Positions 6,640 through 43,478 of a stretch of 64,000 nt of DNA are shown here, in pieces. The DNA comes from Hyphomicrobiales bacterium. Its GTDB lineage: Bacteria > Pseudomonadota > Alphaproteobacteria > MED-G09. The notes under the pieces were generated by a model. It was not told the origin of the DNA. It did not search any database and saw only the letters and a list, made by a program, of their open reading frames with translations. The stretch's first letter is position 1. The number at the start of each line of letters is the position of its first letter. A program made the translations under genes and the position numbers. The stretch is from NCBI GenBank assembly GCA_028339975.1, contig JAOLDG010000008.1:2154-66153 (forward strand), in the 5' to 3' direction.

Positions 6640-6767
6640 CAGTGAATTTTAAACAAGATATTGCATCTTACTCATTATTGATTTAACTAGTATTTTTCTC
6701 CTAGTTATTTGACTTAATTATTAAATTTATTGGTTTTTATGTTAAAGTTATTAGTAAGTGAATTTGT

Positions 6768-6844
6768 GGTCCCGTAGCTCAGCTGGATAGAGCAACGGAT
6801 TTCTAATCCGTAGGTCAGTAGTTCGAATCTACTCGGGATCACCA
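6768..6844 (+). tRNA. tRNA-Arg (anticodon TCT)
   Basis: The 77-nt cloverleaf can be read directly. The acceptor stem is GGTCCCG/CGGGATC, the D-arm is GCTC-AGCTGGATA-GAGC, the anticodon stem is ACGGA/TCCGT with loop TTTCTAA (anticodon TCT), and the T-arm is AGTAG-TTCGAAT-CTACT, with an encoded CCA. Confidence 0.85.
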
Positions 6845-6850
6845 TTTAAA
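6800..6850 (+). repeat. attL core: 3' 45 nt of tRNA-Arg plus TTTAAA, the 51-bp direct-repeat partner of 15114-15164
   Basis: The string TTTCTAATCCGTAGGTCAGTAGTTCGAATCTACTCGGGATCACCATTTAAA is identical at 6800-6850 and 15114-15164. Confidence 0.85.
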
Positions 6851-6898
6851 TTTCATTGTAATACAACAGTTATCCTTAGTAAATAGCCAAATAACCAT

Positions 6899-6928
6899 CT
6901 GTACGTACATTCATCTCTAACTGTACGT
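6899..6928 (+). promoter_or_regulatory. putative integrase arm-type binding sites (CTGTACGT x2, 22-bp spacing) at the attL arm
   Basis: CATCTGTACGT is at 6896-6906 and AACTGTACGTTT at 6919-6930. Their reverse complements (ACGTACAG x2) are at 14945-14972 at the other end of the element. Confidence 0.5.
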
Positions 6929-7045
6929 TTTTATACCTTGATATACATTTCAATACATTTATACTTATTATGTTGTATAAAACGTTGTACAAAAATAATA
7001 ATAAAGCTTATTTCGGACAGTTAATCCGAAATTTGAGCATACGAG

Positions 7046-9190
7046 GTGTTACTGGTGACGAAATATCTAAATGTTCCTAAGATTAAAGAAAAGGATTATT
7101 CTATTAAGTACAAAGATGAGCCAATTTTTGTAATAGAACAATTCAGCAAGCTATCATTACGAATAGGTAAATTTAAAATCGCCTATTATTACAGAGATAG
7201 AAAGCAATCAATTAAACTTGGTGAGCATCCTCATCTATCCTTATATGAGGCTCGTCAAAAAGCTCGTGAGATTGAAGGCGAAGTTTCAGTTCCAGAACAA
7301 TACAGGGATAAAAAAACCCTCTTAGAAGCAATTTATGGGAATCCAGAGCTTTACTGTCAAAACTCTTACCACTCAAATGAACATATAAGAGAGAGTGTAT
7401 TAGAAGGAAGCTATCTGGCTCAATATAAGGATAGGACAAATACATCCTCTTTTATTGATAAGAAAAACAAAATTCGCCTTCTTGCTGACCATTATGTTGA
7501 TATTAATAACAACTGCTCGATAACTATTGATAAGCTTGATGGCTTGGAAATAAAGAAAATTGCAGAGGATTATCATTTAATTGATGGTAAATCCGCATTA
7601 GCTTCAAAAAGATTATTTAATGAATGGAAAACTTTCTTCAAATGGTTATCAAAAAATGAAGGTATTTCAAATATTCTTGCTGACCAAGAAGTAAGCAAAG
7701 TTAAAGTTCGGGTTAAAAGGCGTGAATATAGAGATCCAAGATTTAAACCTGAGGAAGTAAACTCTTTAATTAATTCTTATGAACAAATGAATGAGCCTTA
7801 TAAATGGATACATCCGTTTATGATGTTTACAGGTAGAAGAATGGCATCTGTTTTACGATTAGAGAAAACTGATATTGATTTCGATAAGAATATTATCAAT
7901 TTTAGAGCTGATAATGAAAAAATGTCTATGAATAACTCAGACAGCATTCCACCTGCATATACTGAGATTCCTATGTGTAAATCCTTAGAATCTCTTGTTA
8001 AAGATAGAATACTTCCTTTTAAACCTGATAATAAGTTTCTATTCGCTCATCCAACTATTAAAGATATTCCCCTTAAGGTTAACGATAGGGAGATGCGAGA
8101 TAAAGTTAGAGAGGTAACAGGTATCAAAAACTTTACCTACAAAGATATAAGAACCAACGTTAATACAGCCATGATTAATCTGGGTATAGACCTTAGAATA
8201 AGGCAATTCATATTAGGACAGAAATCAGAGAAGGTTGAGAGTAGGGAGCTACAGCAACCCAGATCATTATCTGTAAATGAGATATTCTATGATAAAAACA
8301 CGCATCTTGAGGAAAAAAGAGAAGCACTTAACAAGATTGAAGGCCTTTGGATTAAATTTTCAGAACAAAATCATAAATTAGATGATAAAATTAGTGAAAT
8401 AACTGAGGATGATGAACTTTCTTTTATTCTTAAGAAAGACTCAGATTTAGAAATAATTAACGATTATCTGAAAAGTATAAAATCTAAGCCAATAACAAGT
8501 ATTAGCGAGTATTTAACTAAAAGAGATGGTCTACATCATGAAGCATCCGATTTCATGCATTGTGTTACACAATTCTTTTTGTACAAACAATACGTTGATT
8601 TTTTAAAGGCAAAAAAACATTTTACTAGCGGTGTTAAATTATACTTAAAAGCATTTATTTACAGACAGTTAAAAACTAATCCTAATTATCATGGTCGTGA
8701 TTATTTAAAGAACTGGAATAAATTGCAAAGCCTAGTTGCGGAATTACCCGCTTCTCATTGGAAAAATAAATACGATTATGAGAAATTAAAAATAGCTAGT
8801 CAAATTCACTATTATCAAGGTGAGTACAATAATTGGAAAATAAAGAAGGAAAAACCTGATTGGACAAAGATTAAAAATTACGATCCAAAAGAAGATGGAT
8901 CTAAAGGTGAGCTTAATGACATACTTTCAGGTAAAGATGGTTTAAATTCAGCGATAGAGCGGTTTAATAATACTTTTTTAAAAGACGGAAAAGATCCTTC
9001 TCCAGAAACATTAGGGCATAGTAAAAGAGTGTATTTGAAATATTATGAAAGTCTAAAAGCCCTAGATTCTATCGCTTTTGTGCAACTATATAACTACCAA
9101 CTTGTTGCTGATATACCAGATGAAAAATTTGAGAGAATGATATCTTCTTCGCAAAGAGATGCTGTTAAAGAAATGGCTAAAGAGTTATAA
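7046..9190 (+). CDS. int: tyrosine-type integrase/recombinase (P4-like N-terminal arm-binding domain) with a long C-terminal extension
   Basis: Starts at GTG. The N-terminal DUF4102-like arm-binding motif is GEHPHLSLYEARQKAREI. The catalytic region contains TGRRMASVLRLEKTDIDF (box I Arg), YKDIR (the HxxR box with His replaced by Lys), and LGQKSE...NEIFY (candidate Tyr). It lies directly next to the tRNA attL. Its 714 aa are about 300 aa longer than typical integrases. Confidence 0.75.
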   Translation: MLLVTKYLNVPKIKEKDYSIKYKDEPIFVIEQFSKLSLRIGKFKIAYYYRDRKQSIKLGEHPHLSLYEARQKAREIEGEVSVPEQYRDKKTLLEAIYGNPELYCQNSYHSNEHIRESVLEGSYLAQYKDRTNTSSFIDKKNKIRLLADHYVDINNNCSITIDKLDGLEIKKIAEDYHLIDGKSALASKRLFNEWKTFFKWLSKNEGISNILADQEVSKVKVRVKRREYRDPRFKPEEVNSLINSYEQMNEPYKWIHPFMMFTGRRMASVLRLEKTDIDFDKNIINFRADNEKMSMNNSDSIPPAYTEIPMCKSLESLVKDRILPFKPDNKFLFAHPTIKDIPLKVNDREMRDKVREVTGIKNFTYKDIRTNVNTAMINLGIDLRIRQFILGQKSEKVESRELQQPRSLSVNEIFYDKNTHLEEKREALNKIEGLWIKFSEQNHKLDDKISEITEDDELSFILKKDSDLEIINDYLKSIKSKPITSISEYLTKRDGLHHEASDFMHCVTQFFLYKQYVDFLKAKKHFTSGVKLYLKAFIYRQLKTNPNYHGRDYLKNWNKLQSLVAELPASHWKNKYDYEKLKIASQIHYYQGEYNNWKIKKEKPDWTKIKNYDPKEDGSKGELNDILSGKDGLNSAIERFNNTFLKDGKDPSPETLGHSKRVYLKYYESLKALDSIAFVQLYNYQLVADIPDEKFERMISSSQRDAVKEMAKEL

Positions 9191-9196
9191 CTTAAT

Positions 9197-9631
9197 ATGT
9201 CAGTTCCTTGTCCAAATCCAAAATGTGGAATACTTGAAGGCAGAAATTATGAAGGGGCTAACCCAATTCTCTTTTTTATTCCTTACATTGCTCCATGGCT
9301 CTGGTTTGATGCAATTATTCCTAGAGATAAAGATATTGCTCAAATTATTACCGAGTCAGACAGAGAGGATTGGGGTATCGACGATTGGGTTGAACTTGGT
9401 GTTTGCGATAGGTGTGGTTATAGACTTGGTGACCCACAACCATGGCAAAAGAATGTTAGAATTAAAAGATTTATTGTATGGATACTAATAATCCTTTTTT
9501 TCTCTTGGGCGACTATTTACTCACTGCTAGAGGATAGTGGTTATTTTTGGGTTAGTTTATTTTTCCTATTCTTTTCCTTAATCTATTTTCGTTCTAACGA
9601 AATTTACGAATTATCGGATGATGACGAATAG
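9197..9631 (+). CDS. hypothetical zinc-ribbon membrane protein
   Basis: Has CPNPKC...CDRC (a CxxC pair) followed by two predicted TM helices and an acidic tail. It begins 7 nt after the integrase stop. Confidence 0.4.
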   Translation: MSVPCPNPKCGILEGRNYEGANPILFFIPYIAPWLWFDAIIPRDKDIAQIITESDREDWGIDDWVELGVCDRCGYRLGDPQPWQKNVRIKRFIVWILIILFFSWATIYSLLEDSGYFWVSLFFLFFSLIYFRSNEIYELSDDDE

Positions 9632-9636
9632 GTTAT

Positions 9637-9790
9637 GTGTAGCCGAGACAAACACGCTCTTGGTCGATAAGGGGATGAAGAGGTACAGAAGATAACCTAG
9701 GAAAACCCTATCAGAGCAAAACTCGACTACACAACGCTATCTGGGAAACAGGGTGAAAAAGATAATCCCCATAACCCAGACGCAAGCTAT
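9637..9790 (+). ncRNA. candidate structured RNA or recombination/packaging element (GC-rich intergenic region)
   Basis: There is no ORF here, and the local GC is ~48% against a ~29% background. A long-range helix pairs GTGTAGCCGAG (9637-9647) with CTCGACTACAC (9722-9732), 10 of 11 bp, and encloses nested hairpins (CTCTT/AAGAG and GATAACCTAGG...CCCTATC). A second helix pairs CTGGG with CCCAG at 9741-9778. Confidence 0.3.
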
Positions 9791-9826
9791 TTGCCTTTTG
9801 AGGCTTTCTTTTTAGCTACATATAAC
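9785..9826 (+). terminator. possible intrinsic terminator downstream of the int-orf operon
   Basis: Hairpin AGCTA-TTT-GCCT-TTTG-AGGC followed by a TTTCTTTTT run and closed by TAGCT. The stem is short, so the call is weak. Confidence 0.3.
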
Positions 9827-9944
9827 TCAGCCTTTCCTAAATTTATTAGGAATTGACCTTCGTTATCTTCAACATCAAGAACTTCATTAGCGGAAACAAT
9901 ATTCCCACTAACTATGATTGTATTTAATATTCTAACTTTCATGA

Positions 9945-11711
9945 TTACGTCGTTACAATATCGTTGATTGCTGAGAAGCCTTGAATGTGTCGAATACCAA
10001 CATCTACAAATCCAAAGATAGTCACTATCACATCACCTCGTGTTGAGAATGTGTAAGGGTCGACTATAAGTTCTGGAGCACCAAACTCACCAATAATAAC
10101 ATTACTCCAATCACCAAAGATGAGAGCTGATAGATTAGCACCAGTTCCTTTCGTTAGAGTGTTTGGAACGTTCTGGGATTGTAAATATCTATATCCTAGA
10201 AGCTCGTCACGATTGTTAGAGATGTATGTCGCATCAGTACCAGCCGGATTTCTCAATGTTGTTCTAAGTTTATTAGCAACCTGAGAGTTCGTGACAAATG
10301 TACCTCGACCAGTTAACAGGCCGTTAGCTGTATCAACGTTGGCAATCATAGTAGAGATATTATCATAAGTGATAGCACCACCATTTGCACCAGATGAAAC
10401 AAGAGATAGACCAGTAGTATTTAGAATACCTGTTGGTTGAACTCCACCAGTTCCATTAATAACGGCTTTATCTATCGCTTCTGATACGCCCATCATTAAA
10501 TCATTCCTCATTAAGTTTTCTAGAGGAGGTAACATCTGGGTTAGAGCTTGTCTGGTATAAGACACTCTAGATGATATTCCATTAGGACTTAGTGTGAGCT
10601 GGTCAAAAGTAGGTGTTGATTCAGTCGCTGGACTTCCTTCAGCTACCCATTCACCAGCAGACGCTAATGTCTTTCTTGGAATTGCTACGTTCTGATTCAG
10701 TCCAGCCATAGTGGTTGCACCAGCATCAATAGAAACATTGAAAGGTCTTAAAACATCAATGAAGGATTGAGGCATATACTCTGTACCAACTAGATTTGAA
10801 GTATTAGTTGTATCGAGTAGAGTTCTTTGTCCAAAAGCTGATGGTGGAACAAATGCACCAGTCGTTGTTCTATTTTGGCGAGTTGCTATTTCTTGAGACA
10901 TTTCTCTCTCAAAACCAGCATTAGACCAATCTGAATTTAACTGAGCTGATATCACTTTGCCTATTGAGTATTCTCTTTTAGACATTGCTTGGTCTTGTTC
11001 AAAGCTAGTGTAAGCAGAAGCAATAGGCTCTGTCTTAACTCTATCTAGTAATTTTGAACGGAACTCATCAAGAGGCATATCTTTCATTGCACAATCTGTA
11101 GCAAATTCGATTTGTCTGTGATGCTTTCCTAGGGCTAGTATTTCTTTAGAAGCTCTTTCATTGGATGCTTCTTTTATTTTAGTTTCGATTTTATTTTCCA
11201 TAATGGATTCCTTTGGTTTTGGATATGATCTTTGAATACCAATACTGTGATCTGCCGGTACTCCAACAACTGACACCTCGTAAGGTTGCCATGATGTAAC
11301 GAGTTGATTGCGACCAACTTCTTTGACTTCATCGATTGAATATCCGATTGATAGAAAGCGTAAGACCTTTGACTTGATGTCATTCCAAACTTCGGTTGCT
11401 CTGGTACTTTGTCCAAGTCTCAGAGTTCCTCTTAGTTTTTTATCCTCAGATATTCTAACGTTCTCAACTGTCCCAATGGGATCTTGTTGATCATGTCCGA
11501 ATAGAAGGGGTAAGCCTATATCCGCTCTTTCCATGTTTATTGCTGATGGTTCATGAACCAGTATCTCGTTATATTCACCACGAGGAACTGGTAACTCAGA
11601 AGAAAGACTGGCTTCAATAGTCCGGTTTTCTCCAGCACGTTCATCTAACTCAATGAGCAGAGTCCTGTGGTTTAAGTCATCACGAGCATCAGACACATTT
11701 TCATGAGTCAT
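9945..11711 (-). CDS. fused prohead protease (S78/U35, HK97 gp4-like) and HK97-fold major capsid protein
   Basis: The N-terminal ~170 aa carry LPLLFGHDQQDPIG and SIGYSIDE, matching the prohead-protease His/Ser regions. A coiled-coil linker follows, then a C-terminal MCP-like region (...IFGDWSNVIIGEFGAPELIVDPYTFSTRGDVIV...). An AGGAAA SD lies 8 nt upstream of the ATG. GC is ~43-45%, well above the surrounding ~29%. Confidence 0.75.
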   Translation of the reverse strand: MTHENVSDARDDLNHRTLLIELDERAGENRTIEASLSSELPVPRGEYNEILVHEPSAINMERADIGLPLLFGHDQQDPIGTVENVRISEDKKLRGTLRLGQSTRATEVWNDIKSKVLRFLSIGYSIDEVKEVGRNQLVTSWQPYEVSVVGVPADHSIGIQRSYPKPKESIMENKIETKIKEASNERASKEILALGKHHRQIEFATDCAMKDMPLDEFRSKLLDRVKTEPIASAYTSFEQDQAMSKREYSIGKVISAQLNSDWSNAGFEREMSQEIATRQNRTTTGAFVPPSAFGQRTLLDTTNTSNLVGTEYMPQSFIDVLRPFNVSIDAGATTMAGLNQNVAIPRKTLASAGEWVAEGSPATESTPTFDQLTLSPNGISSRVSYTRQALTQMLPPLENLMRNDLMMGVSEAIDKAVINGTGGVQPTGILNTTGLSLVSSGANGGAITYDNISTMIANVDTANGLLTGRGTFVTNSQVANKLRTTLRNPAGTDATYISNNRDELLGYRYLQSQNVPNTLTKGTGANLSALIFGDWSNVIIGEFGAPELIVDPYTFSTRGDVIVTIFGFVDVGIRHIQGFSAINDIVTT

Positions 11712-11967
11712 ACTTCGTTTCCTAATATGTTAAGTGAATTCCTCGACCAGAGGATTTGCCTGAGTCTACCCTGACTCATCTTACTCTTATATAAAACTTA
11801 ATCTCTAGAACCGAGTAAGAGTTCTATTAAGTTGAAAAGGTTTTGCTCTTAACATTCCATGTATTGAATCTCCGCTACCAGCAGAAAACAAACAAACCTG
11901 ATAGATTTAATATGGGATGATTTGCATTCTTATTCAAGTGAAGTAATCTAATTTTAAACGAAATGGG

Positions 11968-12219
11968 ATGGAGATGATTATGGGTATATTTTTGGTTATT
12001 TTTTATATTGTAGTTGGCATAATGTTTTTTTCGGCTTGGGTGGGTTTGTTTATAATAAATAACTCCATACAAAGCCTACTTAGTTATGTAAGAATTCAAA
12101 ATGTCCTTTTGAAAAATATTGTTAATAAAGATAGAACACCATCTCAAGAGAATTATTTTTTAAATCAGCAAGCAGAAAACGATGATTCTTTTTATAAGGG
12201 CGTTACACCAATAGAGTGA
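11968..12219 (+). CDS. small hypothetical membrane protein (cargo)
   Basis: An 83-aa ORF with two hydrophobic helices and no homology that I recognise. Confidence 0.3.
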   Translation: MEMIMGIFLVIFYIVVGIMFFSAWVGLFIINNSIQSLLSYVRIQNVLLKNIVNKDRTPSQENYFLNQQAENDDSFYKGVTPIE

Positions 12220-12232
12220 TTAGGAAAAGGTA

Positions 12233-12655
12233 ATGAATAAAATACTTATAGCGTTAGTCATGGCAGTTGTGATGTGTGGAAATGTTTATGCTTGGACAGA
12301 GAGAGGTGAGCAGATTGATGAAGGGTTATATATTTCTCATTATTTCGATGAGCAGAATATTAGGCATCAGGGTAAATATCTCTGGTATTGGACTTTAATG
12401 AACATACATCGTGATGATAAACAAATTTATGGAAAAGGTGTAAAAAGTTGGCTTAATTATTGGAGAATAGATTGCAATCAGAGGACTAATGCAGTTTTTA
12501 AACTTGTTAAATATTCAAAGTTAGGTGGGCAAGGCAGAGTTCTTGAATCAGAAGATTATGAAGGCGGAGCTAATGCACAAGGCACTCCAAATACTTTTTC
12601 ATATATTATTCCAAATTCTCAAGGCGATTTCATAGCACAGTCTTATTGTAAGTAA
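12233..12655 (+). CDS. hypothetical secreted protein (cargo)
   Basis: Has an N-terminal signal peptide (MNKILIALVMAVVMCGNVYA) and is 140 aa. It sits inside the element, separated from the small membrane ORF by 13 nt. Confidence 0.4.
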   Translation: MNKILIALVMAVVMCGNVYAWTERGEQIDEGLYISHYFDEQNIRHQGKYLWYWTLMNIHRDDKQIYGKGVKSWLNYWRIDCNQRTNAVFKLVKYSKLGGQGRVLESEDYEGGANAQGTPNTFSYIIPNSQGDFIAQSYCK

Positions 12656-12901: not shown

Positions 12902-13375
12902 TTAGTTAAGTTTTAATGGGTCTAAAAAACCTTCAGGATTATCTTTTACATTTGTACGACTAGCAACAATAATATCGGCATAATGCTCTCTATCTTCTCT
13001 ATCTTGAAAGATAGTCTCTACTTTATGCCAATCCCTGTCACTTACCTTGCATTCATATGGATACAATATAGACCATCCCATATTCATAACCCAATCAGCT
13101 TCTTTCTTTGTACTTTTAAATATCTTATGATCTGCCTCTTTTGAATCTATTTTCCATCCAAAATAACAGGCTACACTTACTGCTTTTTTTTGCATACACC
13201 ACAAGTCATATAGATTAGCTATACTCATCTCTGTTGGCCCTGTTCCAATAACGCTATTGATGGATATTTTTACATCTAACATACTCATCTGTTTTTTTTC
13301 TGAGTCACTGAAACCTCTAAAGTGTTCGTTTTCCAAAGCTTTTGAAAGGTTAAAAAATACATATTGTGGATCCAT
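12902..13375 (-). CDS. hypothetical protein (element-borne)
   Basis: A 157-aa ORF with no recognised motif. It has the same orientation as the replication/excision module. Confidence 0.35.
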   Translation of the reverse strand: MDPQYVFFNLSKALENEHFRGFSDSEKKQMSMLDVKISINSVIGTGPTEMSIANLYDLWCMQKKAVSVACYFGWKIDSKEADHKIFKSTKKEADWVMNMGWSILYPYECKVSDRDWHKVETIFQDREDREHYADIIVASRTNVKDNPEGFLDPLKLN

Positions 13376-13464: not shown

Positions 13465-14283
13465 TCAATTTGCTATGCTCTTAAAAAGGTTGGTTGTTGT
13501 TTGTAAGTCTCGGTTATTATCGTGCCAATGCTGACCAATCTCATCGATTTCAAAGTCACTAAGATGACCCTTCCAAATATCATATCGCATTATGACATCA
13601 CCAGAATTATGCTTTTCTAGTTCCTTCCAGAATTCATTGAACTTATTTTCAGTAAAGGTCTTAGTCTTAGGCTTATCTGGATTTTCACCCCCATCAAGGG
13701 GAGGGTGAAAAGACTGATTAACTTCAGCATTAGTGTCTAATATATCTCTAGTTTCTTTTTTTTTATTCTTTTCTTCTCTTTTCTTATGCTTAAGTCCAAC
13801 TAACTCACTTTCCTTGTTTTCTGGGAAATTATCATCATCGCTATGTATAGGTTTGTCAGAGACTTGCTCAGAGTTTGTGGTCGACTTGTTGTCCTTTAGT
13901 AACTCATTGTATTGATCTAGTCGCTCTTTCGCCATTTCTCGTTTGGCTGTTGCACCTTTCTTGCCTTTTTCAACATTAGTGAGATGCTTTGCCATAGTTT
14001 CATAATATAGTTTTTCTCCGAATTCAAAGTAATATCCTTTATTGGGAACTTTCCTAAAGAATGGCTTTATAACTTCACATACTGCTTGATATTGTCTTGG
14101 ATCTAACTTGGTTCTATATAGAAACCAACTTTTATCATCCAAATTAACGGCCTTATATTCTTGCATCCATTGTGCATCTAATATGTCTCTTAAAGCTCCT
14201 CGCTCTATACCCTTAAGATGTCCAGTCATGTAATGAAATTCTGCTACCGGAAACGGCATCGTATGAAGTGTAATAGTAGACAT
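13465..14283 (-). CDS. DUF1376 (YdaU-like) prophage replication-associated protein
   Basis: The N-terminal FHYMTGHLKGIERGALRDILDAQW fits the DUF1376 signature (HL...E.GAYRRLLD). It is followed by a low-complexity lysine/glutamate-rich region. Confidence 0.55.
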   Translation of the reverse strand: MSTITLHTMPFPVAEFHYMTGHLKGIERGALRDILDAQWMQEYKAVNLDDKSWFLYRTKLDPRQYQAVCEVIKPFFRKVPNKGYYFEFGEKLYYETMAKHLTNVEKGKKGATAKREMAKERLDQYNELLKDNKSTTNSEQVSDKPIHSDDDNFPENKESELVGLKHKKREEKNKKKETRDILDTNAEVNQSFHPPLDGGENPDKPKTKTFTENKFNEFWKELEKHNSGDVIMRYDIWKGHLSDFEIDEIGQHWHDNNRDLQTTTNLFKSIAN

Positions 14284-14675
14284 TAGTTCTTAACCTTCTC
14301 GGCAACTGTCTGGGCTTGCGAACAAAACCTCATGCCTTTGTAGAGAAATGGTAAAAGATTGATCACAGGTCTACCCAAGTCGAACTGCTCTAATAAATCT
14401 TCCCTTTCATGGAAATAATGAAGTCTCCATCCATTACTTGATAACTCAAGAGCCATATAAGAGCTTATGCCTTTCTGGTAGTTCTCATGAATCATATCTA
14501 GGTTATCTAAATTAGCTATAACTTGAGCTGATAGATTGCTTGCATCTTGGACTTGCATACCAAAGCTCTCAAAGGTCGGAACTAGCTCACTCATCCAGAA
14601 ATTAACAATATTGATAGTTTCCTGAGGAAGATCATTAAAATCATCTGATTTAAGCATTAGACTTAATCCATGCAT
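14283..14675 (-). CDS. hypothetical protein, translationally coupled to the DUF1376 gene
   Basis: The track ORF extends to 14783, but that N-terminus overlaps the AlpA gene in another frame. An internal Met at 14675 or 14657 is the more likely start. The stop overlaps the start of the DUF1376 gene. Confidence 0.3.
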   Translation of the reverse strand: MHGLSLMLKSDDFNDLPQETINIVNFWMSELVPTFESFGMQVQDASNLSAQVIANLDNLDMIHENYQKGISSYMALELSSNGWRLHYFHEREDLLEQFDLGRPVINLLPFLYKGMRFCSQAQTVAEKVKN

Positions 14676-14880
14676 TAACTTCGCTTTCACGATACATAGC
14701 TTTGCACTTGTTATTAGGTCTCTTACTTTTTGGAAACAAACCTTCGCTTTCCCATCTCTGGATAGTTGCTGATGATTTACCAACTAAAGTCGCTACCTCA
14801 GTTCTTGATAGTAGGCGATTTTTAGTCTGACTAAGTTTTTCTAGTATTTTGTAAATTTCTGTTTCTAATTGTTTGTCCAT
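14650..14880 (-). CDS. AlpA-family phage transcriptional regulator / excisionase (HTH)
   Basis: A 76-aa protein with LLSRTEVATLVGKSSATIQRWESEGLFPKS...YRESEVNAWI, matching the AlpA/Xis-type HTH. It is the first gene inward from attR. Confidence 0.65.
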   Translation of the reverse strand: MDKQLETEIYKILEKLSQTKNRLLSRTEVATLVGKSSATIQRWESEGLFPKSKRPNNKCKAMYRESEVNAWIKSNA

Positions 14881-14972: not shown

Positions 14973-15113
14973 TTTAACTTTGATATTGAAGTTACTTTGA
15001 GCGTAATGTATTACTTTAAACTACAAGTTATAGGGATTAGGTGTTGTACAGAACGATGTACAAAAATCGAGAAAGATAAGCAATTACTTACGTTTGACTA
15101 TGGTGTTTTATGG

Positions 15114-15164
15114 TTTCTAATCCGTAGGTCAGTAGTTCGAATCTACTCGGGATCACCATTTAAA
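15114..15164 (+). repeat. attR core: 51-bp direct repeat of the tRNA-Arg 3' end
   Basis: Identical to 6800-6850. The identity breaks immediately outside on both sides. Confidence 0.85.
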
Positions 15165-15243: not shown

Positions 15244-15900
15244 TTAAAGTAGGGACCAACCATAGAAAATGGATATAAAAATTGTATAAATAGCCAGAAG
15301 AATAACGTTGACAGGGTTTCCAGATAGTTTTGGTGTTTTTATTTGAGAAACATTTAATATTGCAAGACATATTCCGCTGGCACCAAGAAAAAATGAAAAA
15401 AATGTATCTTCAAAGCGCTCTGCAAACATAAATAAAAAAACTAGAATAATACTATTGTTATCAATGGCTAGGCCAGTGTATTTTGCATCGCTTGATAATC
15501 CAAAGGTGCTAAAATAACTTAATCTAATAGCACCAAAAACTAGCATTATGAATGCAGGAATTAAAAAGAGCGGATTAAAATTCGAATAACTTAATATCAA
15601 AATAGCGGGGGTGACTCCATAACTTACAATATCTATTAGTAGATCAAGTTGGCCTCCAAATTTTTGATCGTCACCTGTTCTTCCCTTTATTTTACGAGCA
15701 ATAAGGCCATCAGCCCAATCAAAGGCAACTGCCCAAATCATTCCTATCATTGCGGCTTCATATATACCTATTATCAGGAAGTATATTGCAAGTAGTGAGC
15801 AGCCTAAGCCTGCAAGAGAGCATATATTGGGAATATCTCCAATGTAAGACAGGATAGATTTTGTTGGAAACTTTGTTGATATTGATCTTTTAGTTGTCAT
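15244..15900 (-). CDS. CDP-alcohol phosphatidyltransferase family protein
   Basis: Has the D(x2)DG(x2)AR...G(x3)D(x3)D signature (DWADGLIARKIKGRTGDDQKFGGQLDLLIDIVSYG) and is a multi-pass membrane protein. Confidence 0.75.
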   Translation of the reverse strand: MTTKRSISTKFPTKSILSYIGDIPNICSLAGLGCSLLAIYFLIIGIYEAAMIGMIWAVAFDWADGLIARKIKGRTGDDQKFGGQLDLLIDIVSYGVTPAILILSYSNFNPLFLIPAFIMLVFGAIRLSYFSTFGLSSDAKYTGLAIDNNSIILVFLFMFAERFEDTFFSFFLGASGICLAILNVSQIKTPKLSGNPVNVILLAIYTIFISIFYGWSLL

Positions 15901-15993: not shown

Positions 15994-16500
15994 TTGAAAA
16001 TAGTTGTATACACTGTCGGTACCTTTGATTTACTTCATGTTGGTCATCTTGCTTTATTGAACCATTGCAAAACACTTGGAGACATCCTCGCGGTTGGGGT
16101 TGCTTCAGATGAAGTTGTTAATATGTACAAACCTAATGTTCCTATTGTTCCCTTAGAACAACGTATGGAGATGTTGCGAGCGCTTGGGTGCGTCGATATA
16201 GTTCGCCCATATCATGAACTTGAGTATATTTCAGGTTGCAAAGCCTTAAATGTTGATATTTTTGTTGTAGGTGAGGATTGGGGAAAGAAATCACATAACC
16301 TTGATGTTGATAACTATATTAGAGATATTGGTAAGAAAATTGAACAGGTTCACTATAATCCAAGAACTTCATCAACTAAAATAAAACAAATGGTTTTATC
16401 TCAGAATCAACTTCAAACCAAAATAAATGAGCAGAAATTACAAAGGTTTTCTGTATATAAAAAGAGTCCGAGCTATCCTTTTGCAAAACAAACTAAATAA
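15994..16500 (+). CDS. cytidylyltransferase (TagD-like glycerol-3-phosphate / phospho-alcohol cytidylyltransferase)
   Basis: Has the HxGH motif GTFDLLHVGH, plus FVVGEDWGKK and NPRTSSTKIK, matching the TagD-family pattern (FVMGDDWEGKF ... PRTEGISTTKIK). Confidence 0.7.
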   Translation: MKIVVYTVGTFDLLHVGHLALLNHCKTLGDILAVGVASDEVVNMYKPNVPIVPLEQRMEMLRALGCVDIVRPYHELEYISGCKALNVDIFVVGEDWGKKSHNLDVDNYIRDIGKKIEQVHYNPRTSSTKIKQMVLSQNQLQTKINEQKLQRFSVYKKSPSYPFAKQTK

Positions 16501-16583
16501 TTTATATTCAATGTTATGATATATCCGCACAAGAGTTTCCCTCAAGCATGTAACTAGAAATTGCTTACGCTATAAAAATTAAA

Positions 16584-16627
16584 TCAGTAGATTAGAAGTT
16601 CAAATCTTCTCGGGATCACCATTTAAA
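16584..16627 (+). repeat. degenerate relic copy of the tRNA-Arg 3' end (old att site)
   Basis: TCAGTAG...AGAAGTTCAAATCTTCTCGGGATCACCATTTAAA aligns to the tRNA T-arm and acceptor (AGTAGTTCGAATCTACTCGGGATCACCATTTAAA). There are 3 substitutions, two of them compensatory in the T-stem (AGAAG/CTTCT). The tRNA 5' half is absent. Confidence 0.55.
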
Positions 16628-16738
16628 AAATAGACAATTATATCCTAAAAATTATAAAAATTAATGCTTGTATGTTTTTAATAACCATTATTAACTAGTT
16701 TTTTTTATAACAAAAACTTAAAAAAATAGGAATTAATT

Positions 16739-17479
16739 ATGAGTTGTATCAAAGGAAAAGTAATTTTAATTACAGGTGCTAGTTCAGGATTTGGCATGGT
16801 AACTGCCAAAAAATGTGTTGAACACGGCGCAAAAGTTGTTCTGGCTGCAAGACGTGAAAATAGACTAAAGGATTTATGCGAATCTTTGGGTAGTGATAAT
16901 GCAATTTTTATGGCCACAGACGTAACCAGGAAAGAAGATTTAAATAATATAGTAAAATACGGAATTGATACCTTTAATCAAATTGACTCCTTGGTTAATA
17001 ATGCAGGAATTATGCCCTTGTCTTTTATTGAGCAAGGTAGAACTGATGAATGGGATCAGATGATTGATGTTAATATAAAAGGTGTTTTATATGCCATTGA
17101 TGCGGTTTATTCCCACATGATGGAAAGAGGTAGTGGTCAAATTATCAATATTTCGTCAGTGGCGGGTAAAAGACTTATTCCTGGAAGTGCAGTTTACTCT
17201 GGAACAAAATTTGCTGTAGCGGCTATCTCAGAAGGCCTAAGAATAGAAAGTGAGGGAAAGCTGCAGGTAACTTGTATTTTTCCAGGTGCTTTTGAAACCG
17301 AACTTGGAGCGTCAATTAAAGATGAAAAAATGCTAGAATATCTTACCAGTGAGGCTAAGTACGCTAATCTTGCCCAGCCTGCCGAGATAGTTGCAGATGC
17401 AATAATTTATTCCCTAGAACAAAAACCTGGTGTTGCTGCAAATGAGATAGTTTTAAGACCAACAGCCCAAGATTTTTAA
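16739..17479 (+). CDS. SDR family short-chain dehydrogenase/reductase
   Basis: Carries the TGASSGFG Rossmann motif, NNAG, and a YSGTK catalytic Tyr-x3-Lys. Confidence 0.8.
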   Translation: MSCIKGKVILITGASSGFGMVTAKKCVEHGAKVVLAARRENRLKDLCESLGSDNAIFMATDVTRKEDLNNIVKYGIDTFNQIDSLVNNAGIMPLSFIEQGRTDEWDQMIDVNIKGVLYAIDAVYSHMMERGSGQIINISSVAGKRLIPGSAVYSGTKFAVAAISEGLRIESEGKLQVTCIFPGAFETELGASIKDEKMLEYLTSEAKYANLAQPAEIVADAIIYSLEQKPGVAANEIVLRPTAQDF

Positions 17480-17505
17480 TCTTATAAAATCAAAAGGATA
17501 ATATA

Positions 17506-17952
17506 ATGACTAAATTAAATATAGTATATGCATCAGAAATGGGAACAGCAATGGATGTAGCTGATAAGACTGAAGCAATAGCTAAAGATAAAGGTGTTGA
17601 TGTTGTTCAGTTTGGGATGGATAGCGTATCAATGGATGAATTAAAAACCATGAGTAAATTAATGATTATAACAAGCACAACAGGTGATGGCGACCTTCCA
17701 ATGATGGGTGAAAATTTTTGGAATGAATTATCGGAATCTGACTTAGACTTAAGCTCTATTGAATATAGCGTCTGCGCCCTCGGGGATAGCTCTCATCATG
17801 AATTTTGTGGTGCTGGCAAAAAAGTTGATGGAAGATTACTAGAGCTTGGTGCAAAAAAAATTCTAGATATGCATGAATGCGATGGTGATACTGAAGGATC
17901 TGAAGAATGGGCGACGCTAGCAATGGATAAGCTAGGGGTTCTGCCTAATTAA
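17506..17952 (+). CDS. flavodoxin-domain protein
   Basis: IVYASEMGTA...TSTTGDGDLP is an FMN-binding flavodoxin-like signature in a 148-aa protein. Confidence 0.6.
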   Translation: MTKLNIVYASEMGTAMDVADKTEAIAKDKGVDVVQFGMDSVSMDELKTMSKLMIITSTTGDGDLPMMGENFWNELSESDLDLSSIEYSVCALGDSSHHEFCGAGKKVDGRLLELGAKKILDMHECDGDTEGSEEWATLAMDKLGVLPN

Positions 17953-18097
17953 GTATGTTGATTAACTGGGAGTAAGAAAACATGTTTTTTGCTAAATTAT
18001 TTTTGGGAACAATTTCCTGGCTTATTATTACTTATTTTCTTTGGGATTGGGTTGTCACTTGAGAATGGAAATATAATTTATTATTTGGAGAAAGAAG

Positions 18098-18553
18098 ATG
18101 AAAACTAAGATACCCCCGCCTTTAGTTGCTTTAATTGTAATGCTTCTAACATTCCTGTCTAGAGATTATCTGGATATATTCTATCTCCATCCACATCTTC
18201 AACGAACTTTGTTTCTTTTATTTTTAGTAATTGGAGTTTCAGTGATTTTCTTGGCAACAAGACAATTTAAAATTTCAAAAACCACTGTTAATCCTTTGAA
18301 GCCTGAAACTGCCTCTAGCTTAGTTACCTCAGGTATTTTTCGTCGAACACGTAACCCTATGTACTTGGGTCTTACCTCACTATTAATATCGTTTAGTATT
18401 TATTTTTCATCAGTATTTGGAATTATTATTTACCTTCCTTTGTTCATTTCTTATATTACTATTTTTCAAATTATTCCTGAAGAAGATGCAATGAATAAAT
18501 TATTTAGCAACGACTATAAAAGCTATTGCTTAAAAGTGAGAAGATGGATTTAA
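18098..18553 (+). CDS. membrane methyltransferase of the ICMT/PEMT (phospholipid methyltransferase) family
   Basis: A multi-TM protein with the conserved SGIFRRTRNPMYLG motif, matching the isoprenylcysteine carboxyl / phospholipid methyltransferase family. Confidence 0.6.
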   Translation: MKTKIPPPLVALIVMLLTFLSRDYLDIFYLHPHLQRTLFLLFLVIGVSVIFLATRQFKISKTTVNPLKPETASSLVTSGIFRRTRNPMYLGLTSLLISFSIYFSSVFGIIIYLPLFISYITIFQIIPEEDAMNKLFSNDYKSYCLKVRRWI

Positions 18554-42263: not shown

Positions 42264-43478
42264 ATGGAGAGTTCTATGGCTACTGGCATTAGAGATAAGG
42301 TTGCAATACTTGGTATGGGGTGTTCTAAATTTGGAGAACGTTGGGATGCAAGTCCTGAAGACTTAATGGTTGAGTCTTATGTTGAAGCTATGGATGATGC
42401 TGGAATTGAGCCAAATCAACTTGACGCAGCATGGTTCTCTCATCATATAGATGATATTGGAGCAGGTAAGGGAGGAACCCCTATGTCGATAGCCCTAAGG
42501 CTTCCTAATATTGCCGTTACAAGAGTTGAAAACTATTGTGCCTCTGGCTCTGAAGCTTTTAGAGGAGCTGTATACGCTGTAGCTGCAGGTGCTGCGGATA
42601 TTGCTATCGCCGTTGGAATGGAAAAACTTAAAGATACTGGTTTTGGTGGTTTGTCGCCAACAAATTACGGAACTCTTACGCCACAAATTGGTCCATCAGG
42701 TTCTGCACCAGGGAATTTTGCTCAACTAGCAACTGCCTATAGAGCCAAACATAATGTTTCTGCCGAAGACTTGAAAAGAGCGATTGCTCATGTATCAGTT
42801 AAAAGTCATGCAAATGGAGCAAAAAATCCAAAAGCTCACCTTCAGAAAGTTGTTACTGAAGAGCAAGTTCTTAATGCACCAATGATCGCTGAGCCTTTAG
42901 GCTTATTTGATTGCTGTGGTGTTTCAGATGGAGCTGCCGCCGCAATTGTTACTACTCCAGAAATAGCCAGAAGCTTAGGTAAAGATAATTTGATTTCTGT
43001 TAAAGCTCTTCAGCTTTCAGTTTCGAACGGTTTAGAAAATCAACATAATAGTTGGGATGGTTCTTATTTTCATACTGTGAGGATTGCTGCTAAAAAGGCT
43101 TATGCTGAAGCTGGAATTACAAAGCCTCGTGAACAAGTTTCAATGATGGAGGTTCATGATTGTTTTTCAGTGACTGAGCTTGTTACCATGGAAGATCTCT
43201 TTATTTCAGAAGAAGGTGCTGCAGTAAAAGATGTTATGGATGGTTTTTACGATGCTGATGGTAAGATTCCATGTCAAATTGATGGTGGATTAAAATGTTT
43301 TGGGCATCCAATTGGTGCTTCTGGTCTTAGAATGCTTTATGAGATGTATCTGCAGCTGCAGGGTAAGGCCGGGCCAAGGCAATTAGCAAATCCATCAATT
43401 GGCCTAACGCATAATTTAGGTGGCCAACCAGCTAATAATGTTTGCTCTATTGCTATCATTGGTGCTCACGACGCCTAG
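42264..43478 (+). CDS. SCP-x-type thiolase (nonspecific lipid-transfer protein / propanoyl-CoA C-acyltransferase-like)
   Basis: Has the thiolase active-site Cys context (VENYCASGSEAF) and a C-terminal GHPIGASG. It is a frequent partner of DUF35 proteins. Confidence 0.7.
   Translation: MESSMATGIRDKVAILGMGCSKFGERWDASPEDLMVESYVEAMDDAGIEPNQLDAAWFSHHIDDIGAGKGGTPMSIALRLPNIAVTRVENYCASGSEAFRGAVYAVAAGAADIAIAVGMEKLKDTGFGGLSPTNYGTLTPQIGPSGSAPGNFAQLATAYRAKHNVSAEDLKRAIAHVSVKSHANGAKNPKAHLQKVVTEEQVLNAPMIAEPLGLFDCCGVSDGAAAAIVTTPEIARSLGKDNLISVKALQLSVSNGLENQHNSWDGSYFHTVRIAAKKAYAEAGITKPREQVSMMEVHDCFSVTELVTMEDLFISEEGAAVKDVMDGFYDADGKIPCQIDGGLKCFGHPIGASGLRMLYEMYLQLQGKAGPRQLANPSIGLTHNLGGQPANNVCSIAIIGAHDA

Follow-up and report, generated by a model that had tools for sequence, protein, structure and literature searches.

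In a 64,000-nucleotide stretch of contig JAOLDG010000008.1 (the window), from the genome of a Hyphomicrobiales bacterium, the minus-strand open reading frame (ORF) at 9945..11711 (588 aa) is a tripartite capsid gene that joins an S78 prohead protease, a helical scaffold-like region, and an HK97-fold major capsid protein (MCP). It is the sole recognizable virion gene of an intact 8,314-bp island at a tRNA-Arg(TCT) gene. We favor the view that it serves as the only virion gene of a helper-dependent phage satellite, a PICI-like tycheposon (PICI, phage-inducible chromosomal island), and give this reading a probability of about 70%. We infer the dependence on a helper, the size of the capsid, the presence of two gene products, and the cleavage site. 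The protein itself is ordinary, and the locus is an intact new case of the MCP-carrying, tRNA-integrating satellites already described in marine bacteria. What may be new is a conserved nested start within the gene, the breadth and size uniformity of islands that carry such a gene and no portal, and the swapping of cargo at tRNA-Arg in a low-GC marine lineage. As an example of a little-studied kind of satellite, in which the capsid gene is the sole virion gene, the locus is clean and apparently active; its host is a marine bacterium of low GC. It raises the questions of how one gene redirects the head assembly of a helper and which head size serves a genome of 8 kb.

An initial annotation, made from the sequence alone, had read the gene as a prohead protease, a scaffold-like linker, and an HK97-like MCP. 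The boundaries it gave were exact on the minus strand, the ORF is real, and profile searches found both protease and MCP similarity. Pfam assigned aa 64-157 to Peptidase_S78 (PF04586; E=5e-11; 43.4 bits, cutoff 21) and aa 330-582 to Phage_capsid (PF05065; E=5e-36; 124.9 bits, cutoff 24.2); PF05065 was the sole match from the phage_coat clan, with no match to an encapsulin family. PHROG 617, 'major head protein', matched end to end (E=5e-111; aa 27-585 aligned to positions 23-624 of 626), and the N-terminus also matched PHROG 4523, 'major head and protease protein'. PHROG 80 gave a further protease match. TIGR01554 scored 99 bits against a cutoff of 27.5, and TIGR01543 scored 44.3 bits, under its equivalog cutoff of 59. 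The NCBIfam model NF045541, 'prohead protease/major capsid protein fusion protein', reached 120.5 bits against a cutoff of 525 with aa 28-282 alone aligned; the ORF is outside this narrow clade, though its architecture is the same.

An AlphaFold2 model of the 588-aa protein, built on 28 homologs (mean pLDDT 72.8), has a beta-rich domain at 28-160, six helices at 175-280, and an HK97 fold with a long spine helix at 315-588, separated by low-confidence hinges (162-178, 227-244, and 296-314). The best Foldseek matches of the model, with a probability of 1.00, were the capsids of roseophage R4C (8gta), the Rhodobacter gene transfer agent (GTA), and HK97, with 6tb9 among the top entries; an encapsulin appeared only at rank 43. 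The prohead serine protease domain (11232..11630, -; aa 28-160) was modeled with a pLDDT of ~85. Its residues H73 and S121 are invariant in the 28-homolog alignment (34-83% identity) and have a spacing that, we presume, resembles that of the catalytic His and Ser of HK97 gp4, and we infer that they are the catalytic pair. The scaffold-like (delta-like) region (10872..11189, -; aa 175-280) has six predicted helices and a conserved ERxRVxEILAxG motif, which makes the linker helical and conserved and the coiled coil of the initial annotation a putative feature. The HK97-fold capsid core (9948..10769, -; aa 315-588) was identified by PF05065, Foldseek, and the mature R4C capsid chain (8gta, 268 aa), which aligns by sequence to aa 307-578; the profile of the ORF matched PDB 8gta with 2.6e-63.

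The initial annotation had described the product as a single polypeptide. The gene is one fused ORF, but this is probably half the story because an internal start predicts a second product of 418 aa. An in-frame ATG (M171; 11199..11201, -) stands at the boundary of protease and scaffold and is preceded by AAGGAA with a 7-nt spacer; the annotated start of the ORF has AGGAAA, 6 nt, and ATG. The M171 column holds Met in 134 of 153 aligned homologs, within a poorly conserved linker, and its codon was always ATG in 126 non-redundant genes. Shine-Dalgarno pairing before this ATG had a mean energy of -6.8 kcal/mol in the 126 genes versus -2.0 for 1,933 control in-frame internal ATGs, and energies of -4 or lower were found in 90% of the genes versus 16% of the controls (Mann-Whitney p=1.6e-58). 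The gene thus probably has two nested in-frame products, a 588-aa protease-bearing form and a 418-aa scaffold-capsid form. In the pairs C/Nu3 of lambda, I/Z of Mu, and UL26/UL26.5 of herpesviruses, an in-frame internal start yields a shorter assembly protein, presumably more abundant than the long one. The predicted products resemble these pairs in that a short form stands beside a protease-bearing long form, and differ in that the short product would include the capsid protein and not scaffold alone. S78 proteases have the fold of herpesvirus assemblin (Cheng et al. 2004, as cited in PMC9618062). We found no description of the conserved internal start in the literature searched. Its presence in more than 120 homologs makes a simple prediction on how fused capsid genes set subunit stoichiometry.

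The initial annotation had also placed the capsid gene beside an integrase in a small, satellite-like island, and this island proved to be an att-bounded element of 8,314 bp. Its integration target is a tRNA-Arg gene (anticodon TCT; 6768..6844, +; found with ARAGORN). A 51-bp direct repeat, consisting of the last 45 nt of the tRNA and 6 nt downstream, forms attL (6800..6850, +), and a second copy with 100% identity forms attR (15114..15164, +), at a start-to-start spacing of 8314 bp. Just inside each end of the element lies a 26-bp repeat, TGTTGTAYARAACGWTGTACAAAAAT (6971..6996, +; second copy at 15042-15067; 88% identity), which may be an arm-type site for the integrase. This tyrosine integrase of 714 aa (7046..9190, +) matched Pfam Phage_integrase at aa 232-394 and PHROG 1, with Arm-DNA-bind_3 below the cutoff. 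Toward the other end, a 76-aa regulator of the AlpA/HTH_17 excisionase type (14650..14880, -) matched HTH_17 (E=3.4e-7) and Phage_AlpA (E=2.6e-5, 24.5 bits against a cutoff of 21). A DUF1376/primosomal-like protein (13465..14283, -), which matched DUF1376 with 28 bits against a cutoff of 30.1 and the 'primosomal protein' families PHROG 4118 and 9327, probably serves replication. None of the island ORFs matched portal, terminase, connector, or tail families among the Pfam, PHROG, and NCBIfam profiles. Apart from the integrase and the capsid gene every island ORF has 272 aa or fewer, and those without a match are shorter than a portal or large terminase would need to be. In the 64-kb window, neither another phage structural gene nor a phage region that could be a candidate helper was found.

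All three domains of the capsid protein are under purifying selection. An ortholog at the same tRNA-Arg in another genome (L088) has a capsid protein with 80% and an integrase with 62% identity, and dN/dS against this ortholog was 0.12 for the protease, 0.12 for the scaffold, and 0.08 for the capsid, with synonymous sites near saturation. In the closest relative (L171, 96.7% nucleotide identity) the 418 codons of scaffold and capsid had a proportion of synonymous differences (pS) of 0.07-0.11 and zero amino acid changes. These patterns point to a functioning gene in a functioning element, and the locus is apparently active. The protease part had a pS of 0.22 and 94% amino acid identity in the comparison with L171, and this higher divergence hints at a recombination breakpoint near the internal start.

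To place the island among its relatives, we clustered the neighbor genes of 157 related capsid loci from genomes and viral contigs. A lambda-family portal (PF05136) precedes the fusion in 92 of the 157 loci and a gpA-type large terminase is present in 69; Nu1-like small terminase, FII-like, and tape-measure genes also occur near phage-borne fusions. We called a locus portal-less if it had an upstream flank of at least 2.5 kb with no portal or terminase, and 35 of the 157 loci fell into this class. Their hosts include Prochlorococcus, Synechococcus, Nitrospirales, Sphingobium, Woeseia, Akkermansiaceae, and roseobacters (Pseudooceanicola, Shimia, Phaeobacter, Aliiroseovarius, and Sedimentitalea), and the genes beside the fusions encode integrases, AAA_25 or VirE helicases, and Prim-Pol primase. 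Direct repeats of at least 28 bp, all but one tRNA-derived in appearance, bound 16 of the 35 loci; their spacing was 6.9-11.0 kb in 14 loci and 12.4 and 16.9 kb in the other two. A scan of metagenomes added three repeat-bounded islands with spacings of 4.7, 7.7, and 8.7 kb, so that 16 of 19 repeat pairs have a spacing of 6.9-11.0 kb. The narrow size of most islands, 7-11 kb, suggests a packaging constraint.

In a neighbor-joining tree, the capsid gene of the window belongs to a clade of 30 leaves, none of them linked to a portal, and the cyanobacterial genes form a second portal-less clade of 12. Monophyly of the portal-less clades is suggested by this tree, which has very short deep branches and no support values. 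When all island proteins were compared by phmmer with the ORFs of 87 related loci, the capsid gene alone was matched, and the other modules were unshared at that sensitivity. As a tentative and rather doubtful extension, the portal-less tRNA-integrating islands, mostly of 7-11 kb and with the nested fusion as sole virion gene, could be an old 'capsid-only' satellite lineage spanning Cyanobacteria, Alpha- and Gammaproteobacteria, Nitrospirota, and Verrucomicrobiota. In such a lineage the capsid would be inherited and not recaptured from helpers, and would form a head of about T=3 on a stolen portal. If true, no smaller genomes that specify an HK97 capsid of their own would be known, and the conserved internal start would serve to set the ratio of protease to shell subunit. 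We also considered the lengths of scaffold and capsid as a hint of small heads and discarded them as uninformative, with a core of ~275 aa in satellites and phages alike and overlapping scaffold lengths.

Two of the related loci have unusual layouts. Prochlorococcus sp. AG-388-A01 (L052) has tandem capsid-fusion islands (9971-11581 and 16792-18432), each with its own helicase, one of which is bounded by repeats 6.9 kb apart. In L175, the capsid-fusion island (7186-11994) lies between two copies of tRNA-Thr 4.7 kb apart; the other islands are much larger, and this one may represent a reduced or minimal version.

In the satellite reading that we favor, infection by a helper phage would cause the element to excise and replicate. 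The element would bring functions of its own to this cycle, namely the tyrosine integrase for integration, the AlpA-like protein for control of excision, and the DUF1376 protein for replication. The short 418-aa form would build most of the procapsid shell, while the long 588-aa form would bring the protease inside by covalent tethering; the protease would then cut away itself and the scaffold to leave a mature capsid protein of ~280-290 aa. The capsid protein of the element would assemble on the portal of the helper, the helper terminase would package the element DNA, and the helper tail would then be attached. The phage-borne homologs have a PF05136 portal and a gpA-type terminase, and a likely helper is therefore a relative that has a portal of the lambda type and a cos terminase of the gpA type. 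A terminase of the gpA type packages unit lengths between cos sites. According to the model of Luque et al., a T=3 head holds a mean of 11.8 kb (95% interval 8.1-17.1 kb) and a T=4 head 13.2-24.5 kb, so that 8.3 kb falls at the low limit for T=3 and short of the interval for T=4. The head of roseophage R4C (PDB 8gta) is T=7 with 415 copies of the capsid protein. As an alternative to a small head, 4-5 copies of the element could fill an R4C-like T=7 head, as virion-encapsidated integrative mobile elements (VEIMEs) do. Tailed-phage-type capsids as small as T=3 have, to our knowledge, not been characterized.

Several observations weigh against the satellite reading. No helper phage, packaging site, or small terminase was identified, and the model of two products rests on sequence signals. 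The replication protein is of the DUF1376 type, just under the Pfam cutoff, and not the primase or helicase typical of PICIs and tycheposons. The viral contigs of IMG/VR contained no close relative of the capsid gene, the profile search giving only matches of at most 38% identity, and the small metagenomic contigs (for example L001, L007, L008, L077, L178, and L184) had no terminal overlap of the kind found in circular or concatemeric forms. In addition, marine satellites packaged in virions have been reported without capsid genes, as concatemers in full-size heads (VEIMEs; PMC9618062). As VEIMEs move without a capsid gene, a capsid encoded by the satellite is not required for transfer.

Other explanations for an isolated capsid gene were weighed against these observations. 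The island could be an autonomous mini-virus without tail and portal, or an encapsulin-like procapsid compartment, in which a helper-free shell takes up DNA by another route or has a cellular or defensive role. Its gene content is of the same kind as that of the temperate 'mini' HK97 entities of Aguilar et al. 2025, which measure 8.9±0.6 kb and encode a capsid protein and scaffold, an integrase, and replication genes, with no portal, terminase, or tail. However, the capsid protein is of the ordinary PF05065 type with no encapsulin-family match, and its closest relatives of known context are found in complete tailed-phage head modules with portal and terminase. We also know of no mechanism that would load 8 kb of double-stranded DNA into a closed HK97 shell without a portal, and we regard an autonomous mini-virus or compartment as unlikely. 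The capsid gene might instead serve mainly in phage interference, with a product that co-assembles with or titrates the portal, scaffold, or capsid protein of an invader, spoils its heads, and is not needed for the transfer of the island. Satellites often disturb the capsid assembly of their helpers, as the background literature shows, and the element has no recognized defense gene that would otherwise account for its retention; a PADLOC scan found no defense system and a generic HTH match only. Yet strong purifying selection conserves the catalytic residues of the protease as well as scaffold and capsid core, which one would expect of a fully working assembly pathway, and the narrow size range of most islands suggests a constraint from packaging. 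A role mainly in interference therefore seems quite improbable to us, though it could coexist with the satellite reading.

A decaying prophage remnant, reduced to a capsid gene beside an integrase, would account for a structural gene without its usual portal and terminase neighbors, and a degenerate third att copy shows that decay occurs at this tRNA. The island itself has perfect 51-bp att repeats and intact ORFs throughout, and its capsid gene has a dN/dS of ~0.1 and no amino acid change at a pS of ~0.09 in the closest relative. The same minimal gene set, mostly within 7-11 kb, recurs in dozens of genomes across phyla, a pattern that independent decay would not give. Hence, we consider a remnant very unlikely.

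The initial annotation had attributed the capsid module to a phage lineage of higher GC content, on the basis of a GC of 43-45% against 25-30% in the flanks. The GC of the ORF is indeed raised, but by less than this: exact computation gave 39.8% in the ORF and 32.8% in the 64-kb window, with a peak of 42.0% in 500-bp windows within the ORF and 28-37% in those of its flanks. Among stretches of 1767 bp in the window the ORF ranks first in GC (99.8th percentile), which favors a recent import of the capsid module into an AT-rich island, although one host gene (42264-43478) is richer still at 41.7%. GC at codon positions 1/2/3 is 50.8/43.1/25.5% in the capsid gene and averages 42.2/33.5/22.7% (sd 6.5/5.6/3.2) in 63 host ORFs, so that ~87% of the excess sits at positions 1 and 2, while the third position (GC3) is within 1 sd of the host genes and equals that of the integrase. 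The integrase is AT-rich and host-like, as the initial annotation had it (31.4% GC overall, GC3 24.6%). The excess follows the amino acid make-up of the protein, which has 25.0% Gly/Ala/Arg/Pro versus 18.8±5.0% in host proteins and 24.7% Phe/Tyr/Met/Ile/Asn/Lys versus 34.8±5.8%. Among orthologs, GC at the second position is steady at 0.43-0.46, whereas GC3 tracks the contig, from 0.22 in two AT-rich contigs to 0.60 in a contig of 52% GC. The synonymous codon usage of the capsid gene is slightly unusual, its z of -2.1 being near the lower limit of the host genes, which could again be taken for a sign of import; the island replication genes deviate further (z=-3.3 and -3.9), so the shift marks the whole element and not the capsid module. 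Since the excess lies at protein-determined codon positions and GC3 is host-like, the foreign-origin reading fails, and codon-position GC, amino acid classes, and orthologs in hosts of differing GC led us to rule it out; a recent import is hardly credible. The raised GC is a by-product of the amino acid composition of the capsid protein. More generally, where a capsid gene stands out by its GC in an AT-rich genome, amino acid composition alone can be the reason.

The fusion of protease and MCP, which the initial annotation had considered uncommon, is in fact an established and common phage type of protease-scaffold-capsid architecture. A search of protein databases with the ORF gave 453 relatives at E<=1e-10, and nearly all of the 120 relatives listed have both Pfam domains. 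By tblastn, 110 records of cultured phages were found, and in 54 of these the match spans 80% or more of the query. Seven Roseobacter CRP phages (CRP-406 to CRP-831), Vibrio phage VP882, Halomonas phiHAP-1, Synechococcus S-LBS1, Enterobacter Arya, and Persinger are among them. The CRP phages, VP882, phiHAP-1, S-LBS1, and Arya share the S78-scaffold-HK97 arrangement over 95-99% of the protein, but with only 29-33% identity and in genomes of 29-44 kb with a full set of head and tail genes. R4C, in contrast, has a homolog of the C-terminal part only (8gta). Such fusions have a product name at NCBI (NF045541) and a dedicated PHROG, and annotations of actinobacteriophages routinely use the label 'capsid and protease fusion'. 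For Gifsy-2, a 'tripartite capsid gene' was reported in 2010, which likewise combines a protease, a scaffold-like middle, and an HK97-fold capsid in one ORF. Genes of the Gifsy-2 type differ in their context, a complete phage genome that includes portal, terminase, and tail. In Gifsy-2 the protease is ClpP-like and not, as in the window protein, of the S78 type.

As a whole, the island is most similar to the PICI-like tycheposons that carry an MCP (Hackl et al., bioRxiv 10.1101/2020.12.28.424599; later Cell 2023). Like them, it adjoins a tRNA gene, has left partial-tRNA repeats (here perfect over 51 bp), and contains a tyrosine recombinase, an excisionase-type regulator, and a replication module (a weak assignment, at 28 versus 30.1 bits) with the capsid gene as its only virion gene. 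It also shares its integration module with elements that carry cargo only, L170 and L169. The Prochlorococcus loci among the relatives have the layout of the tycheposons of Hackl et al., and their capsid genes are full-length homologs of the window fusion with 33-34% identity. The window differs from these in its host, a low-GC marine metagenome-assembled genome labeled Hyphomicrobiales bacterium and not a cyanobacterium, in its integrase of ~700 aa, which had no phmmer match to the integrases of the Prochlorococcus loci at E<=1e-4, in its DUF1376-type protein in place of a primase or helicase, and in the position of its capsid gene, which falls into the other portal-less clade of the neighbor-joining tree.

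Capsid-forming PICIs (cf-PICIs), represented among the Foldseek matches by the EcCI2 capsid (PDB 9gyi), are also satellites that make their own HK97-fold capsid and obtain part of the virion from a helper. Their gene set reportedly also includes a portal and head-tail connectors, a protease of its own, and terminase subunits (Alqurainy et al. 2023), none of which is present in the island. VEIMEs (Eppley et al., PNAS 2022, PMC9618062) and the mini entities of Aguilar et al. 2025 resemble the island as small (5-17 kb) integrative elements of marine or gut origin with integrase, AlpA, and replication genes, in oligotrophic bacteria, and the mini entities share with it the lack of portal, terminase, and tail. 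VEIMEs reportedly have no major capsid gene and are packaged as concatemers, whereas the island encodes a capsid gene; the mini entities have encapsulin-like capsid proteins and come from gut samples. PMC9618062 lists 'periplasmic serine proteases' in module 2 of Pelagibacter/Alphaproteobacteria and cites a prohead-protease paper for them, and these proteins might be unrecognized protease-capsid fusions. A paper on Charybdis elements proved unrelated to the island.

Comparison with close relatives revealed that modules are exchanged at this tRNA, as Hackl et al. describe for tycheposons. L170, a contig of 9,959 bp with 96.7% DNA identity to window positions 6765-9639, encodes an integrase with 99% amino acid identity followed by an RTX-type protein of 1,925 aa and no capsid gene. 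L169 (10001-22097 of a 1.48-Mb contig with syntenic host flanks) has an integrase with 62% identity at the same tRNA, then small ORFs and genes for cation (metal) efflux and RND pumps, again with no capsid gene. Conversely, L172 has a capsid module with 97% identity joined to a different AlpA/DUF1376-like/107-aa module, in which a homolog of the DUF1376 protein occupies the same position, and a lipoprotein that differs from that of the window but has the same signal peptide. The mosaicism proposed in the initial annotation thus exists in gene content and not in base composition. The segment of ~60 nt that encodes this lipoprotein signal peptide (MNKILIALV...) is present at 12233-12291 in the window, 12932-12990 in L169, 9017-9082 in L170, and 2526-2586 in L172, where the proteins that follow it are unlike one another and measure 79, 140, 157, and 311 aa. 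Judging from this pattern, the segment seems to be the constant 5' end of a cargo cassette whose remainder can be swapped.

The capsid gene is preceded by a non-coding leader of 234 bp (11712..11945, -). Homology of ~97% to L171, L172, and L174 begins at 11945-11949, so the capsid module travels with its leader, which may contain a promoter or a packaging site. No significant inverted repeats or fold were found in the leader (z=-1.1), and a scan of the island for promoters and terminators gave counts no higher than in shuffled sequence. On the other side, a 51-aa ORF (9787..9942, -) starts 2 nt past the capsid stop codon; L171 encodes its protein without any difference, within DNA of 96.7% identity, and L088 lacks it. 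A variable cargo slot between integrase and capsid gene holds a 144-aa protein (9197..9631, +) with CxxC pairs and hydrophobic segments, as seen by eye, and no family match; in L088 the slot holds a 71-aa secreted repeat protein. Upstream of the leader lie two further cargo genes, an 83-aa membrane-protein-like ORF (11968..12219, +) with a weak DUF3139 match only and the 140-aa Adhesin_E-like lipoprotein (12233..12655, +; Pfam PF16747, E=4.6e-12), and a gene for a 157-aa protein without family match (12902..13375, -). An ORF of up to 166 aa, also without family match, is listed at 14283..14783 (-) with a TTG start that overlaps the AlpA-like gene; translation therefore probably begins near 14657.

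The C-terminal extension of the integrase (~310 aa; aa ~400-714) matched no family. The long form is common to all four homologs found in the database (692-711 aa) and was also kept in the very divergent integrase of L001, which has 707 aa and 22% identity over the catalytic core. Beyond attR, the third, degenerate copy of the 3' end of tRNA-Arg (16582..16632, +; blastn and alignment) appears to mark an older insertion between 15165 and 16632 at the same site. This stretch contains a CDP-alcohol phosphatidyltransferase gene (15244-15900) and, as judged by eye, a cytidylyltransferase-like gene (15994-16500).

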